This document shows positions 5,503-31,958 of a stretch of 32,000 bases of DNA, one piece after another; the first letter of the stretch is position 1; the number at the start of each line of letters is the position of its first letter. The translations under genes and the position numbers were made by a program. This DNA comes from Nostoc punctiforme PCC 73102 (GTDB lineage Bacteria > Cyanobacteriota > Cyanobacteriia > Cyanobacteriales > Nostocaceae): NCBI RefSeq assembly GCF_000020025.1, contig NC_010628.1, forward strand, positions 1,110,001 to 1,142,000. The letters run 5' to 3'. The notes below the pieces were generated by a model. It was not told the origin of the DNA and ran no database searches. It was given only the letters and a program-made list of their open reading frames with translations.

Positions 5503-5579
5503 GGTCATGGGGCATGGGGCATGGGTTATTAATTCATCTTCCCAATGCCCAATTCCCCATTCCCTACTCCCCACTCCCC
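5503..5579. repeat. STRR-type heptamer inverted repeat (GGGGCAT units facing CCCAATG/CCCCATT/CCCCACT units)
   Basis: Direct reading: ggtcatggggcatggggcatgggt ... cccaatgcccaattccccattccctactccccactcccc. The arms can pair. The element sits right after the ribF stop, so it may act as a terminator-like hairpin. Confidence 0.7.
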
Positions 5580-5586
5580 GCGCTGC

Positions 5587-6495
5587 ATGAGAGAAAAAAT
5601 TGACGCTTTAACACAAAATCTGGCTCTTACCATTGTTGGCAAAGCTGAAGCAATACGCTTAGTGCTAGTAGCCTTGCTAGGTGGTGGTCATGCCCTGCTA
5701 GAAGATGTTCCTGGTGTTGGTAAAACCCTACTCGCTAAATCTCTAGCTCGTTCACTGGATGGTAAGTTTCAACGCCTACAATGTACCCCCGATTTACTGC
5801 CAACTGATATTACTGGCACCAATATCTGGAACCCAAAAAGCGGCGAATTTACTTTTCTCCCTGGGCCAGTCTTTACGAATATTCTCTTAGCTGACGAAAT
5901 TAACCGCGCTACACCCCGCACTCAGTCAGCTTTGCTGGAAGTTATGGAGGAACATCAGGTAACAGTCGATGGTGTCTCTCGTCTAGTTCCCCAGCCCTTC
6001 TTTGTCATCGCTACTCAAAACCCGATCGAGTATCAAGGTACTTTTCCCCTGCCGGAAGCGCAAATGGATCGGTTCATGTTGTCGCTGAGTTTGGGCTATC
6101 CTTCGGAGGCAGAAGAACTCCTGATGCTGCAAAATCTCCAAAATGGTATTAAGGTTGGTGATTTGCAGCCTTGTATTACCTTGGCAGAAGTACAGGAATT
6201 GCGTTACATCTGCTCTCAAGTAAAAGTAACAACCTCCTTGCAACAGTACATCCTCGAATTGGTGCGGGCAACACGCCAAGATGAGGAAATCGCTCTTGGT
6301 GTCAGTCCGCGTGGCACATTAGCATTACAACGGGCTGCCCAAGCGTTAGCTTTTCTATTAGGGCGTGATTATGCCATTCCCGATGATGTGAAATTTCTCG
6401 TCCCTCACGTTCTTTGCCATCGCCTTATTCCTAGAGGAGGACGCAACGCTAGAACTGTTGTTGAGCGATTATTGCGATCGGTTTCTATTCCTTAA
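5587..6495 (+). CDS. MoxR-family AAA+ ATPase
   Basis: It has Walker A (EDVPGVGKT), Walker B (LLADEINRA) and the ATQNPIEYQGTFPLPEAQMDRF sensor region typical of MoxR/RavA-type ATPases. The tracked ORF starts at 5545, but those 14 codons translate the heptamer repeat. ATG 5587 (MREKIDALTQNL) is the probable start. Confidence 0.9.
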   Translation: MREKIDALTQNLALTIVGKAEAIRLVLVALLGGGHALLEDVPGVGKTLLAKSLARSLDGKFQRLQCTPDLLPTDITGTNIWNPKSGEFTFLPGPVFTNILLADEINRATPRTQSALLEVMEEHQVTVDGVSRLVPQPFFVIATQNPIEYQGTFPLPEAQMDRFMLSLSLGYPSEAEELLMLQNLQNGIKVGDLQPCITLAEVQELRYICSQVKVTTSLQQYILELVRATRQDEEIALGVSPRGTLALQRAAQALAFLLGRDYAIPDDVKFLVPHVLCHRLIPRGGRNARTVVERLLRSVSIP

Positions 6496-25721: not shown

Positions 25722-27482
25722 GTGTCCCACATCACTCAGAGGGCGGTTCACTGTATAAATCCTGATTGTCAACGTCCTTATCCCCAACCTTGGGGAAACA
25801 AATTCTGCAACAGCTGTGGCACACCGCTAGAGTTGTTAGACCGCTATGTTCCACTTCAGCCATTAGGTTCGGGAGGATTTGCTCAAATTTACACGGTTTG
25901 GGATGAAAAAACTCAAACAGAGAAAGTGCTGAAAGTGTTGGTAGAAGATTCACCAAAAGCACTGGAATTATTTACCCAAGAGGCCGCGGTTTTATCTAGT
26001 TTGCAGCATCCAGGTGTCCCCGCAGTCGATACTGAAGGGTATTTTCAGGTACAACTGTTTAACCCCAAGCCGCACCAACTACCTTGTCTGGTAATGGAAA
26101 AAATCAATGGACGGACTTTAGAGGAGATATTAAAAAAGTTTCCCCAAGGGTGTCCAGAGAACTTGGTTATCAATTGGTTTGCCCAAGCTGTAGAGATTTT
26201 ACAAGAATTACACAAACGTCAGATTATTCACCGGGATATTAAACCTTCTAATTTAATGCTGGGCACATCTTCGCCCACTGTCAGCCTACCTCAAGGGCAA
26301 ATAGAAGGCGATCGCCTGGTACTAATTGATTTTGGTGGGGCAAAGCAATTTAGCCCCTCTAAGCTGCGTTCTCAGTCGAGTTCTACCCGATTATTTTCTT
26401 CTGGTTACAGTCCACCAGAACAAGTGAGTGGAAGTATTGTCGGGCCAAGTGCCGATTTTTATGCCCTTGGTCGAACGATGATTGAACTGCTAACAGGCAA
26501 ATACCCGCTAGAGTTGGAAGATCAGCAAACTGGGAAACTTGTATGGCGCACTGCGGTAAATGTCAATCCGCAATTAGCAGATTTGCTGGATGAGATGGTG
26601 CAAGAGGATGTGCGATCGCGTCCAGCAAATGCAGCTATGATTCAAAAACGGTTGGCGAAGATTTCTCAACCATTACCGCCGCCAGGATTATTTGCCCAAC
26701 TGCGAGATCGGGTTAAGCAAGCTTCAACGCAAGTTTCCCAGAGATTTACACTGCTAATCCAAGCTATTGAACAAGTTTTAGCGAACTTTAGCCAAGCTGT
26801 AACTAAAACCGTTGTTTTTATCGCTCAAACAATCATCAAAATTTTCCAAGCTTGTTTGGCGACGATTTGGGCGATGATTTTGGCTTATGTTGGCGCTTGT
26901 TTTGGTGCGATCGCTGGTTTTATTTTGGCATATCACACCAACTTGGGGCGTTGGGTTGTGGAATTTATTTCGAGTCAGCTAAACCAATTAGTCCCAAATA
27001 CTCAAACCGTCTTTGGGGCAGATATTTTGGTATTCATCGCCGCAGGCTGGGGAACCGCTTGGGGACTGACAGCATCCGGGTGTTTTGGTCAACGGCGGCG
27101 CTTTTTAGTAGCATCGCTGATGGGCATGATTAGCTACGGCTTTGGCTGGTTCATTTTGCAATTAATCACACCAAAAGACAGTGGTGAAGGCTTAGTTGCA
27201 GTGATTTTAGTAGCAGCTTGCCTACTCACATTGAGCTTAGGTCTTCGCAGCCATCACATAGTGTACGCCGTGTTAGCTGCCTTTGGTAGCGCGATCGCCT
27301 ACGCATTTTTGATTCTTTTGAGGTTAGCACCTCCCATCTTCCAATTTTCTAGTCAACCAGCCTGGTCAGAGTTACAGTTACCTCTGATTTTTTTTGGTTC
27401 TGTAGGCTTCTTTATCAGCTTCTGGTTAGGAGTAAGTTACTACCTAATTGTCCCTGGATTGCGCCTTTTAGGGTGGCGATGA
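25722..27482 (+). CDS. Ser/Thr protein kinase with N-terminal zinc ribbon and C-terminal polytopic membrane domain
   Basis: The start is GTG. The zinc ribbon reads CINPDC...CNSCG. Kinase motifs are GSGGFAQIY, VLKVL, HRDIKPSNLML, DFGGAK and SPPEQ. The last ~230 residues hold several hydrophobic helices. Confidence 0.9.
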   Translation: MSHITQRAVHCINPDCQRPYPQPWGNKFCNSCGTPLELLDRYVPLQPLGSGGFAQIYTVWDEKTQTEKVLKVLVEDSPKALELFTQEAAVLSSLQHPGVPAVDTEGYFQVQLFNPKPHQLPCLVMEKINGRTLEEILKKFPQGCPENLVINWFAQAVEILQELHKRQIIHRDIKPSNLMLGTSSPTVSLPQGQIEGDRLVLIDFGGAKQFSPSKLRSQSSSTRLFSSGYSPPEQVSGSIVGPSADFYALGRTMIELLTGKYPLELEDQQTGKLVWRTAVNVNPQLADLLDEMVQEDVRSRPANAAMIQKRLAKISQPLPPPGLFAQLRDRVKQASTQVSQRFTLLIQAIEQVLANFSQAVTKTVVFIAQTIIKIFQACLATIWAMILAYVGACFGAIAGFILAYHTNLGRWVVEFISSQLNQLVPNTQTVFGADILVFIAAGWGTAWGLTASGCFGQRRRFLVASLMGMISYGFGWFILQLITPKDSGEGLVAVILVAACLLTLSLGLRSHHIVYAVLAAFGSAIAYAFLILLRLAPPIFQFSSQPAWSELQLPLIFFGSVGFFISFWLGVSYYLIVPGLRLLGWR

Positions 27483-27666: not shown

Positions 27667-28047
27667 ATGGAACCTATTTCTATGATTATTGCTGCTTTAG
27701 GTGCTGGTGCGATCGCAGCTACTAAGGATACCGCAGGAACAGCAGTTAAAGATGCCTATCAGGGGTTGAAAACCTTGATTAAGAAGAAGTTTGAAAGTGA
27801 ACCAAAAGCACAAATGGTTCTGGAAGAACACGAAACAGACCCTGAAACCTATGAAGCACCACTTAAAAAGAAATTAGCTGAAGCTGGTGCTGAAAAAGAT
27901 GCAGAAATTATTAAGTTAGCCCAAGAGTTACTGAAACAGGCAAAACCTGATGAGTCAGCAGCAGGTAAATACAACACAGTGTTTCAAGGAGAAGTAAAAG
28001 GGATTCAGGTGGGCGATCACAACAAACAAGAAAACACATTTGGCTAA
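27667..28047 (+). CDS. Bell/HeLo-like small effector candidate with a C-terminal amyloid-signalling-type motif
   Basis: The 126-aa ORF has a Gly/Ala-rich hydrophobic N-terminus (MEPISMIIAALGAGAIAATKD), a helical Lys/Glu-rich body (AVKDAYQGLKTLIKKKF...) and the tail KYNTVFQGEVKGIQVGDHNKQENTF. That tail matches the N-terminus of the next gene. The downstream ORF starts 19 nt after the stop. Confidence 0.72.
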   Translation: MEPISMIIAALGAGAIAATKDTAGTAVKDAYQGLKTLIKKKFESEPKAQMVLEEHETDPETYEAPLKKKLAEAGAEKDAEIIKLAQELLKQAKPDESAAGKYNTVFQGEVKGIQVGDHNKQENTFG

Positions 28048-28066
28048 CAGCCACTGGAGTATTTAG

Positions 28067-31000
28067 ATGGCTGAAGAGAATTCCAACTACAGTTCAAGGT
28101 TTGAAAATGAAGTAAAGAGTGCTGTAGTTGGTGAAAAAAACATTATCTACAACTACTTTTACTATAGAGAAGAAGCAAGAGTAGAACCTGTTGATTCTAC
28201 CGACGCTGCTGATGAATATCTCCCTTGTCCTTATCGGGGGTTGTTTCATTTTGGCCCCAATGATGCGGATGTTTTCTGTGGGCGGGAAATATTTATCGAA
28301 GAACTTTATAGTGCAACTAAAACCAATAATTTTATTCCGGTGCTAGGTGCATCAGGAAGCGGTAAATCTTCGGTGGTATTAGCGGGATTAGTCCCTAAGT
28401 TACAAACAGCAGGTCATTGGCAGTTTACTCACTTTCGTCCTGGTTCTGACCCTTTCCATGCTCTAGCTTTAGCTCTTGTTCCTCTTTATACACCTAATTT
28501 AGATCAAACAGACCAAATTGCCCAAGCCCGAAAGATGGCTGGTTACTTGCAAGATGGTTCTGTTATTCTCTTAGATGTTTTTGCTAAAATTCAGCAAAAT
28601 CACCCTAATCATCGGGTACTACTGATTGCTGACCAATTTGAAGAAATTTACACACTCTGTAACAATCAAGAAATTCGCCGTAAGTTTCTCGACTGCTTAT
28701 TAGCCAGTTTAGTAACTCCTACTTCCCTGACTTCATCAGCTACGGTGTTAGTGACAACGATGCGGGCAGATTTTTTGGGAAATGCTCTCTCCTATCGTCC
28801 CTTTGCTGATGTCTTGCAAAATGCTGACGTGAAACTGGGGCCGATGAATCGGGAGGAACTAACAGAAGTCATTGGAAAACCTGCCCAAAAATTTGGGGTG
28901 ACATTTGCAGACGGACTGGTAGAACGCATTCTGGATGATGTGGAAAACCAACCGGGAAATTTACCTTTGCTAGAGTTTGCTTTAACAGAGTTGTGGAATA
29001 AGCGAACAGGTAAACAATTAACTCACAAAATCTATGAAGAAATTGGTCAAGTAGAAGGTGCGTTAGCTCGTCATGCGGATGAGAAATATGGCAACTTGAC
29101 AGATGATGAGAAGGAAAAAGTGCGGCGGATTTTTATTCAATTGGTGCGTCCGGGTGAGGGAGCAGAAGATACAAGACGCATAGCGATGAAAGCGCAATTG
29201 GGGGAACAAAGCTGGTCTTTGGTAAAAAAATTAGCTGATGCTCGGTTGGTGGTGACAAGTCGCAATCTTAGCAGTCAAGAAACAGTAGAAGTAGTCCATG
29301 AAGCTCTGATTCGCAATTGGGGAGAACTGCGACAATGGATGAATACAAACCGCGTTTTTAGAGCTTGGCAAGAGCGATTGCGAGCAGCAAAGGGACAATG
29401 GGAAGCAACAAATAAAGATTCGGGGTCATTGTTGCGGGGTGCAGCATTAGCAGAAGCAGAAGAAAAACTGAAGGAACGCCCAGAAGACTTAATTGATGAA
29501 CAAGAATTTATCGAGCAGAGTATTAAAGAAGGAAATCGCCTTAAACAAGTTGAAGCAGCCCGCAGAAAGCGCGAAATCAGAACCGCCTGGGCAATTGCGG
29601 CAGGTTCAGTGGTGGCGGTGGTAATTAGCAGTGGATTGGGTTTGACGGCATGGAATCAGACGAAGCAGGCACAACTCAATCAAGCTGAATCTCTGAGTAG
29701 ATATTCCTTATCTCTAATTAATGAACATAAAGACTTAGAAGCTTTCGTCACAGCAATAAAAGCAGGAAAAATCCTGCAAAGCCAACACACAACTAAACTA
29801 GAAACTTTCAATGCTTTGCAGACAGTTCTGGTTCAGGGAAGAGAACGAAACCGCTTAGAAGGGCATCAAAGCGCAGTCAATAGTGTGAGTTTCAGCCCGG
29901 ACGGCAAAACCATCGCCACGGCATCACAAGACAAGACAGCGCGGTTGTGGAACCTGCAAGGGCAACTGCTGCAAGAATTCAAAGGGTATCAAGGCACAGT
30001 CTTAAGTGTGAGTTTCAGCCCGGATGGCAAAACCATCGCCACGGCATCATCTGACAAGACAGCGCGGTTGTGGAACCTGCAAGGTAAACTGCTGCAAGAA
30101 TTCAGAGGGCATCGCAGTGGTAGAGGTATGAGTTTCAGCCCGGACGGCAAAACCATCGCCACGGCATCAGAAGACGGGACAACGCGGTTGTGGAACCTGC
30201 AAGGGCAACTGCTGCAAGAATTCAAAGGGCATCAAGGCAGTGACGAAGGTGTGAGTTTCAGCCCGGACGGCAAAACCATCGCCACGGCATCACAAGACAA
30301 GACAGCGCGGTTGTGGAACCTGCAAGGGCAACTGCTGCAAGAATTCAAAGGGCATCAAGGCGAAGTCTCAAGTGTGAGTTTCAGCCCGGACGGCAAAACC
30401 ATCGCCACGGCATCATCTGACAAGACAGCGCGGTTGTGGAACCTGCAAGGGCAACTGCTGCAAGAATTCAAAGGGCATCAACGCGGTGTCAATAGTGTGA
30501 GTTTCAGCCTGGACGGCAAAACCATCGCTACGGCATCATCTGACAAGACAGCGCGGTTGTGGAACCTGCAAGGGCAACTGCTGCAAGAATTCAAAGGGCA
30601 TCAAGGCCTAGTCTTAAGTGTGAGTTTCAGCCCGGACGGCAAAACCATCGCTACGTCATCAGATGACAAGACAGCGCGGTTGTGGAACCTGCAAAGGCAA
30701 CTGCTGCAAGAATTCAAAGGGCATCAAGGCGAAGTCTCAAGTGTGAGTTTCAGCCCGGACGGCAAAACCATCGCCACGGCATCAGAAGACGGGACAGCGC
30801 AGTTGTGGAACCTGCAAGGGCAACTGCTGCAAGAATTCAAAGGGCATCGCAGTGGTAGAGGTGTGAGTTTCAGCCCGGACGGCAAAACCATCGCCACGGC
30901 ATCAGCTGACAGGACAGCGCAGTTGTGGAACCTGCAAGGGCAACTGCTGCAAGAGTTCAAAGGGCATCAAAACGTAGTCTCAAGTGTGAGTTTCAGCCCG

Positions 31001-31702
31001 GACGGCAAAACTATCGCCACGGCATCCTGGGACTGCACAGCGCGGTTGTGGAACCTGCAAGGGCAACTGCTGCAAGAATTCAAAGGGCATCAAGGCGCAG
31101 TCAATAGTGTGAGTTTCAGCCCGGACGGCAAAACCATCGCCACGGCATCAGTTGACGAGACAGCGCGGTTGTGGAACCTGCAAGGGCAACTGCTGCAAGA
31201 ATTCAAAGGGCATCAAAGCGGTGTCAATAGTGCGAAGTTCAGCGCAGTCAATAGTGTGAGTTTCAGCCCGGACGGCAAAACCATCGCCACGGCATCATCT
31301 GACAACACAGCGCAGTTGTGGAACTTGCAAGGGCAACTGCTGCAAGAATTCAAAGGGCATCAAGGCCTAGTCTTAAGTGTGAGTTTCAGCCCGGACGGCA
31401 AAACCATCGCCACGGCATCATCTGACAACACAGCGCGGTTGTGGAACCTGCAAGGGCAACTGTTGCAAGAATTCAAAGGGCATCAACGCGGTGTCAATAG
31501 TGTGAGTTTCAGCCCGGATGGCAAAACCATCGCCACGGCATCTTATGACAAGACTATTAAACTCTGGGATCTAGATTTACACCCTTTAATGAGGCGCAGT
31601 TGTGATTCGGTACGCGATTATTTAACCTATAATCCTTTAAAAGATAATCCTGATGTCAGCGAGAATGACAGGCACTTGTGCGACGGTATTGGCAGAAAGT
31701 AG
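28067..31702 (+). CDS. NLR-like STAND (NACHT-type) P-loop NTPase with N-terminal signalling motif, one predicted TM helix and 14 WD40 repeats
   Basis: GGAG lies at 28056..28059. The N-terminal motif spans residues 7-31. CPYRGLFHF...FCGRE leads in to Walker A GASGSGKS (28346..28369) and Walker B-like [10 protein letters not shown]. The hydrophobic segment [24 protein letters not shown] maps to 29582..29653. The 14 WD40 units run from residue 599. Confidence 0.93.
29861..31575 (+). repeat. Coding tandem repeat: 14 WD40 units of 123 bp (two of 120 bp, one of 147 bp), near-identical at nucleotide level
   Basis: The string gtgagtttcagc recurs at 29885, 30008, 30128 (as atgagtttcagc), 30251 and onward. 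The block ttgtggaacctgcaagggcaactgctgcaagaattcaaagggcatc recurs almost verbatim at 13 unit junctions. Confidence 0.95.
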
Positions 31703-31732
31703 GGAGCAGGCTTGCCGTGAGCGTAGCCGAAC

Positions 31733-31813
31733 GGGGGCAGGGGGCAGAGGAGCAGGGGAGCAGGGGAGCAGAGGAGAGTTTTTGTACAAGTTCTTTCCCC
31801 TCTGCTCCTCTGC
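31733..31813. repeat. G-rich / C-rich inverted-repeat element downstream of the NLR gene (same family as 16527..16640)
   Basis: The G-rich arm is gggggcagggggcagaggagcaggggagcaggggagcagaggagag and the C-rich arm is tttcccctctgctcctctgc. They share a 12-nt exact complement (GCAGAGGAGCAG/CTGCTCCTCTGC). Confidence 0.6.
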
Positions 31814-31958
31814 ACTCAAGCTTGTGAGAAATGCGGGCTATTGAACCTGATGCAGAGTAGGCGATCGCACTTTGGGAAAACTTCAGGGGCGATCGCCTTG
31901 ATCGAGGAAAAGTGCGATTGGTATACTGAGAACAACTTCTAGAAAGGGCGATCGCATC

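Follow-up and report, generated by a model that had tools for sequence, protein, structure and literature searches.

Two adjacent genes of Nostoc punctiforme PCC 73102, a short one coding for a small helical protein and a long one coding for a STAND NTPase followed by WD40 repeats, raise the question of whether they form a single signalling device and, if so, what that device does. They occupy positions 27667 to 31702 of a stretch of 32,000 nucleotides (contig NC_010628.1, positions 1,110,001 to 1,142,000), hereafter called the window; all coordinates given below refer to it, and every feature of the pair lies on its + strand. An earlier note, made from the DNA letters alone, had proposed an amyloid-templated switch of the Bell/BASS/NLR type, in which the larger protein (the receptor) passes an amyloid fold on to the smaller one (the effector). 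The proposal is supported by the exact match of both proteins to a published pair, by the helical bundle predicted for the effector and its N-terminal motif named MEPIS, by the conserved pairing of the two genes and by the co-variation of their motifs; the preferred reading is that the two genes make up a switch of the Bell/BASS/NLR kind for regulated cell death or immunity, held here with a probability of about three in four.

A published pair and its shared motif

Exact-sequence look-up identified the small protein as ACC79696.1 (WP_012407718.1; UniProt B2IUC5) and the large one as ACC79697.1 (WP_012407719.1; UniProt B2IUC6), both from Nostoc punctiforme PCC 73102. Residue for residue, these are the two proteins given by Dyrka et al. 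2020 (bioRxiv 10.1101/2020.01.06.895854) as the cyanobacterial example of a Bell/NLR pair with the RHIM-like motif BASS3. The constructs cloned in that work were ACC79696.1(94-126) for the Bell side (27946..28044) and ACC79697.1(1-38) for the NLR side (28067..28180). In Podospora every tested fusion was bistable, being either diffuse or aggregated and infectious, and propagated as a prion; the tested motif pairs co-localised, the Bell-side motif was converted by the NLR-side motif, and the Nostoc 94-126 fragment gave fibrils 5-7 nm wide in vitro. Pair, motif class and amyloid behaviour alike are already known, having been published in 2020. The earlier note was aware of no experiments on a cyanobacterial member; this stands for native function, but not for the motifs, which were tested for this exact pair in Podospora and in vitro. 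A literature search on both accessions and on BASS3 returned no paper on this pair later than Dyrka et al. 2020. The genome screen of that study was confined to NB-ARC and NACHT proteins, and the pair is absent from the list in its Table S2; because only NACHT or NB-ARC neighbours were taken, pairs partnered by nSTAND1, a large subfamily, lie outside the published screen.

The motif shared by the two proteins lies at the C-terminus of the effector (residues 102-125, YNTVFQGEVKGIQVGDHNKQENTF; 27970..28041) and close to the N-terminus of the receptor (residues 8-31; 28088..28159), and both boundaries were set by aligning the effector tail to the receptor N-terminus. In this alignment 10 of 24 positions are identical and the local score is 44, while shuffled sequences give 19.4 +/- 3.8 and only 1 in 5000 reaches 44; the presence of effector-type sequence at the extreme N-terminus of the receptor, as already claimed in the earlier note, is thus confirmed. 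The effector motif contains GIQVGD, which agrees with the core expected of a RHIM, G-[IV]-Q-[IV]-G.

A search for relatives of the effector gave 405 homologues at E <= 0.001, and those with an organism name are cyanobacterial; the counts on tails, starts and HetE-N matches given here and below refer to the best 120 of them. Among these the helical body is conserved and the last ~25 residues are modular: about 103 tails are of the BASS3-like type FQGEVKGxQxGD, 11 carry GDFKGIQGDISGG, three GDVFGVAGTNSGTVNIG and one KYAATSGSGNASISG, and one more is of another type. One homologue (P0050) has the unit GDFKG.QGDISG twice.

The partner gene follows these changes. A scan of species-representative genomes yielded 43 loci, 35 of them with an intact effector gene followed by an intact receptor gene. 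Six tail classes are found across the 35 paired loci, and the receptor N-terminus is always of the same class as its own effector; indeed, at the nine loci where the effector tail has switched class (L023, L029, L032, L034, L038, L039, L041, L042 and L043) the receptor N-terminus has switched too. For instance, the tail TVQGDVFGVAGTNSGTVNIG of L023 is matched by TEGDVLGVAGTNSGTVNIT in its receptor, and the tail KYAATSGSGNASIS of L029 by EYAATSATGNATIT. Over the 35 loci the mean motif score is 60.8 for own pairs versus 22.0 across classes, and at each locus outside class A the own partner outscores all receptors of other classes. At the level of sequence, this co-variation is the strongest argument for the two motifs working together.

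The effector, the receptor and a predicted membrane helix

The composition of the effector is as the earlier note had described it: a hydrophobic N-terminus (MEPISMIIAALGAGAIAA), a Lys/Glu-rich helical body and a short tail (KYNTVFQGEVKGIQVGDHNKQENTFG). The structure prediction proposed there was carried out with AlphaFold2, using a 15-sequence alignment, and returned a five-helix bundle (helices at residues 3-19, 25-41, 46-57, 59-73 and 79-92) with a disordered tail; the mean predicted local distance difference test (pLDDT) score is 77 and that of the core is ~89, while residues 106-126 have values below 50 and no secondary structure. On this model and on its N-terminal motif, residues 1-98 (27667..27960) are assigned to a Bell-type helical domain. 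Helix 1 (MEPISMIIAALGAGAIAAT) is hydrophobic and is preceded by an acidic residue at position 2. This is the arrangement named MEPIS, in which a hydrophobic helix opens the protein and position 2 or 3 is acidic, and which is described as common to Bell, Hell and several antiphage NLRs (Ibarlosa 2024, bioRxiv 10.1101/2024.11.07.622273); helix 1 is a putative membrane-inserting element. The window effector starts with MEPIS itself, as do 59 of the 120 homologues, and a start of the type M-[E/D]-P is found in 116. Pfam lends the domain indirect support, in that a precomputed match to PF20701 (HetE-N) exists for 118 of the 120. HeLo does not appear in the Pfam output for the effector, no PADLOC model matches it, and NCBIfam gave only a weak, sub-threshold match to rSAM_lost_HExxH.

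In the receptor, residues 55-452 (28229..29422) match the nSTAND1 family of STAND NTPases (Pfam PF20703, E 8.7e-121), with the P-loop GASGSGKSS at residues 94-102 (28346..28372) and a Walker B-like motif near residue 185. Of the 66 Pfam families matched by this protein 25 were listed, with nSTAND1 as their sole NTPase family, and profile matches place its NTPase in the nSTAND1 clade, which is neither NACHT nor NB-ARC. The partner receptors of the other tail classes are similar in this respect, seven of eight having nSTAND1 and one NACHT. An exhaustive HMMER search with the NTPase region matched 45,596 cluster representatives.

The C-terminal part consists of 14 WD40 units (residues 591-1170; 29837..31576), counted both as 14 Pfam WD40 stretches and by hand. 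The P-loop STAND NTPase with 14 blades announced in the earlier note was thus found, with the family of the NTPase now specified. Fourteen units would suffice for two seven-bladed propellers, presumed to be the ligand sensor. The underlying DNA is a 123-bp tandem array with 88% matches; the units share a mean pairwise identity of 83%, and their variation is concentrated at unit positions 12, 13, 15, 31 and 33. In fungal NLRs, internal repeat conservation has been tied to rapid diversification of binding specificity (Dyrka et al. 2020). Across related class A loci the receptor length varies from 1024 to 1282 amino acids, suggesting that repeat units are gained and lost. One unit (residues ~1040-1088) has an internal duplication of 8 residues. 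The NCBIfam search of the receptor gave beta-propeller families only, all sub-threshold, and a PADLOC match to HEAT-ARM_XIII was set aside as repeat-driven.

Between the NTPase and the repeats, hydropathy predicts a transmembrane helix at residues 507-529 (29585..29653). This segment contains the most hydrophobic 19-mer of the receptor, with a Kyte-Doolittle value of 1.91 versus 1.45 for the next best, and the sequence RRKREIR stands directly N-terminal to it. In all 29 partner receptors of at least 560 amino acids the most hydrophobic window is located at residues 480-566, also where the sequences are unrelated, with Kyte-Doolittle values of 1.74-2.97; a naive sum on the Hessa scale ranges from -3.9 to +2.3 kcal/mol for these windows, against +4.8 to +9.6 for the soluble proteins of the window, and the 15 flanking residues contain on average 5.2 K+R upstream versus 1.3 downstream. 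A comparable segment was found in 122 of the 145 usable sequences among the best 150 of the 45,596 nSTAND1 relatives (P0137-P0286, 46-82% identity), at a fixed offset with a median of 416 residues past the P-loop, and it is the global hydrophobicity maximum in 119 of these 122. Several relatives without the segment stop shortly after the NTPase domain, and a plasmid-borne partner receptor (L045) is without it as well.

The flanking charges follow the positive-inside pattern, from which the NTPase is predicted to be cytoplasmic and the repeats to lie outside (N-in, C-out). The receptor might then be a single-pass membrane protein, with the amyloid motif and nSTAND1 in the cytoplasm and the 14 WD40 blades in the periplasm or the thylakoid lumen; on the hydropathy profiles, the chance of this is put a little short of even. 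The word 'transmembrane' is absent from the text of Dyrka et al. 2020, no transmembrane segment is mentioned for nSTAND1 by Kaur et al. 2021, and periplasmic sensors have been predicted for certain other STAND proteins (Doré et al. 2024). The predicted helix is the only element of the locus with a potential for novelty. If it is real, it changes where the ligand is to be sought and would extend NLR-like signalling to sensing beyond the cytoplasm: the switch would relay an extracytoplasmic signal, such as phage contact, envelope damage or a molecule from a neighbour, across the membrane, and a pore-forming effector would be nucleated directly at its target membrane. As most of the closest nSTAND1 relatives share the helix, it would then characterise an entire class of membrane-spanning NLR-like receptors.

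Gene layout, distribution and surroundings

The open reading frame list and the raw sequence agree on the layout given in the earlier note. The effector gene (27667..28047) starts with ATG, codes for 126 amino acids and ends with a TAA stop at 28045-28047; the receptor gene (28067..31702) starts with ATG and codes for 1211 amino acids. The 19-nucleotide gap between them holds a GGAG ribosome-binding site (28056..28059), 7 nucleotides 5' of the receptor ATG. A consensus scan found no terminator-like site on the + strand within the gap; the sole one on this strand is at 28222-28240, inside the receptor frame, and the number of such sites matches shuffle expectation. Given the short gap, the GGAG and a gap free of + strand terminator-like sites, co-transcription of the two genes is plausible. 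The gap measures 18-20 nucleotides in most class A loci, and in the window neither reading frame is broken, the P-loop, the Walker B motif and the 14 repeats all being in place. No structured RNA was matched by Rfam within or near the pair.

Just 3' of the receptor stop, at 31733..31812, there is a purine-rich short tandem repeat resembling GGGGCAGAGGAGCA, with periods of 8, 16 and 24. Together with a CCCCTCTGCTCCTCTGC on its 3' side it makes a long hairpin (minimum free energy -56.7 kcal/mol for 31703-31830, z -2.45), after which no U-run is present; a terminator and a dispersed repeat element are both possible.

The survey of related loci proposed in the earlier note shows that the pairing is conserved, a homologue of nSTAND1 adjoining the effector gene in 34 of the 43 loci. 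The flanking synteny, represented by an RRM protein, S21 and a Ser/Thr kinase, is limited to the four closest Nostoc genomes; since the nSTAND1 neighbour is kept far beyond these four, the pair travels as a unit. Relatives of the effector are also found on eight conjugative plasmids, two of them from Arthrobacter. The Nostoc plasmid pNPM2 carries a pair with matching class B motifs (L045, 5001-8587). The copy on plasmid pJ353-116 of Arthrobacter sp. J3.53 (L044, 5001-7906) shows 48% identity across residues 1-104; the next gene codes for a TPR protein that has a P-loop, and no obvious matching motif is seen at the annotated start of this protein.

A defence-island setting for the Nostoc pair was considered and rejected, its neighbours being pheS, ribF, a MoxR ATPase, secA, a penicillin amidase, an NDH subunit, two-component regulators, an RRM protein and rpsU. 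The gene directly upstream (25722..27482, + strand) codes for a Ser/Thr protein kinase of 586 amino acids, with weak, sub-threshold Pfam zinc-ribbon matches at its N-terminus and a C-terminal half that is long, hydrophobic and probably multi-pass. As a third component of the module it was rejected, because it is syntenic in the four closest Nostoc genomes only; it probably stands outside. Farther away, the MoxR-type AAA ATPase (5545..6495, + strand) matches the Pfam family bpMoxR, described as 'MoxR-vWA-beta-propeller ternary system', with 29.1 bits versus a cut-off of 27.

Mechanism, rival readings and known systems

In the preferred reading, the WD40 propellers of the nSTAND1-WD40 receptor would bind a ligand, and the receptor would oligomerise through its NTPase, so gathering its N-terminal BASS3 motifs (residues ~8-31). 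The gathered motifs would take a cross-beta amyloid fold and template the C-terminal motif (residues ~102-125) of the 126-amino-acid Bell protein; conversion of the tail would destabilise the five-helix bundle and free the hydrophobic MEPIS helix 1, which would attack the membrane, so that the cell is killed or arrested. The amyloid, prion and cross-seeding steps have been shown by others for these fragments in heterologous systems, while the present analysis established the gene order, the sharing of the motif and its co-variation, the predicted helical bundle and the identity of the NTPase as nSTAND1. By analogy with HET-S/NWD2 of Podospora anserina and with Bab/Agp of E. coli ECOR25, we infer that in Nostoc the oligomerisation would be ligand-driven, the membrane would be attacked and the outcome would be abortive infection or cell death.

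Several results weigh against this reading. The profile searches named the receptor domains, nSTAND1 and WD40, but on the effector the Pfam matches stayed below the local cut-offs: the Pfam RHIM model gives 14.4 bits versus 20 on the effector motif, EAD10 (PF19954) gives 15.1 bits versus 24.1 (E 0.024) on residues 73-121, and the local HetE-N model, which scores the homologues at 13-21 bits versus a cut-off of 25, has no match in the window effector. A Foldseek search of the effector model against the PDB had its best hit at E = 2.8, so that a relation in fold to HeLo, MLKL or Bab was not recovered. The core of the receptor motif is SAVVGE, without the Q of the I/V-Q-I/V-G core, and with the published BASS3 profile the effector reaches E <= 0.01 while ACC79697.1 lies just below the threshold at E 0.1 (Dyrka et al. 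2020), a value that fits the degenerate SAVVG core. The predicted helix calls the view of the receptor as a cytosolic NLR into question. As for function, cell death and phage defence by a Bell/BASS pair in bacteria have been shown only for Bab/Agp (Ibarlosa et al. 2024); the Nostoc pair lies in a housekeeping context with no defence island, and several of the related loci have decayed.

Some of these points bear on the role of the switch rather than on its mechanism. The same mechanism might serve allorecognition or kin recognition among filaments, cell death in development (as when filaments fragment) or the response to an envelope or extracellular cue, instead of antiphage abortive infection; such a role is possible, with the odds clearly against it, and it is somewhat favoured by the housekeeping surroundings and by a possible external sensor, given that the N-in/C-out helix would put the WD40 repeats in the periplasm or thylakoid lumen. 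It would also agree with a tblastn search of 50,697 phage records, where no phage-encoded decoy or relative of the effector was matched, with the enrichment of Bell/BASS pairs in multicellular bacteria, and with the fungal prototype, which acts in allorecognition. On the other hand, Bab/Agp, the sole bacterial Bell/BASS system tested in vivo, is antiphage, and the helix is a prediction; the WD40 units, 83% identical and with few variable positions, a pattern linked in fungal NLRs to rapid diversification of specificity, would suit such a role, but rapidly diversifying sensors fit pathogen recognition equally well.

Two further explanations deny the templating or the partnership itself. The shared sequence could be an ordinary homotypic adaptor of the effector-associated domain (EAD) type, such as EAD10, recruiting the effector to the NTPase by soluble contact and without amyloid templating. 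The pairing of NTPase N-termini with effectors through EADs has indeed been described as a general principle (Kaur et al. 2021), and the weak EAD10 match becomes stronger in one effector homologue (E 0.00032); however, it is below the cut-off in the window, the receptor N-terminus searched alone has no Pfam match, EAD10 and RHIM included, and the motif is unstructured and of low confidence in the AlphaFold2 model, whereas these exact fragments make fibrils and self-propagating aggregates and cross-seed each other, which leaves the adaptor improbable. That the two genes are functionally unlinked neighbours, or a relic in decay whose signalling has been lost, is very improbable. Decay does occur among the related loci: in L014 (5974-8592) Bell and BASS3 are fused in frame to the part of the receptor that follows the NTPase, which is deleted; the tails of L019 and L030 are frameshifted; the receptor of L035 is truncated at its N-terminus; and in L001, L006, L010, L011, L015 and L020 the downstream frames are broken into 304-803 amino acids, where a pseudogene and an assembly error in the repeats are indistinguishable. 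The window copy is instead intact, the spacing of the genes is kept in most class A loci, and unlinked genes would not co-vary in motif class.

Since the 2020 study, the related E. coli system has shown that pairs made of a Bell protein and an amyloid motif can act as abortive-infection defence. The Nostoc pair is a useful target, as Nostoc punctiforme is genetically tractable and this is the cyanobacterial pair for which motif-level data already exist.

Three known systems can be compared with the pair. BASS3 has been described as RHIM-related (Dyrka et al. 2020), and in the mammalian RHIM necrosome of RIPK1/RIPK3 a short I/V-Q-I/V-G amyloid motif, GIQVG in the Nostoc effector, likewise links sensors to a membrane-permeabilising helical-bundle executioner. 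Differently from the necrosome, the Nostoc pair has no kinases and the effector itself bears the motif, while the SAVVG core of the receptor is devoid of the Q.

In Bab/Agp of E. coli ECOR25, a Bell-type protein and a shared BASS motif mediate abortive infection against T5, and helix 1 of Bab is required, since the G11K change abolishes it (Ibarlosa et al. 2024). As in Nostoc, the product of the adjacent gene carries the motif of the effector at its N-terminus. Conversely, the motif is BASS11 instead of BASS3, the Bab domain ('Babybell') spans ~80 amino acids and that of the Nostoc effector ~100, and Bab/Agp resides in a prophage defence island whereas the Nostoc pair stands among housekeeping genes; a sequence comparison of the Nostoc effector with the PDB chains detected no link.

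One parallel drawn by the earlier note was the layout of HET-S/NWD2, and most of it holds: the genes are adjacent, the receptor is a STAND protein with WD40 repeats that are internally highly conserved, and its N-terminal amyloid motif is the template for the C-terminal one of a helical effector, which targets membranes in the fungus and putatively so in Nostoc. The NTPase departs from it, being nSTAND1 and not NACHT. The domains of the fungal pair are HeLo in HET-S and NACHT in NWD2, those of the Nostoc pair Bell (HetE-N) and nSTAND1; the fungal motif, HRAM, has two pseudorepeats and the Nostoc one is a single RHIM-like BASS3 unit; and NWD2 is cytosolic, whereas the Nostoc receptor has a predicted transmembrane helix.

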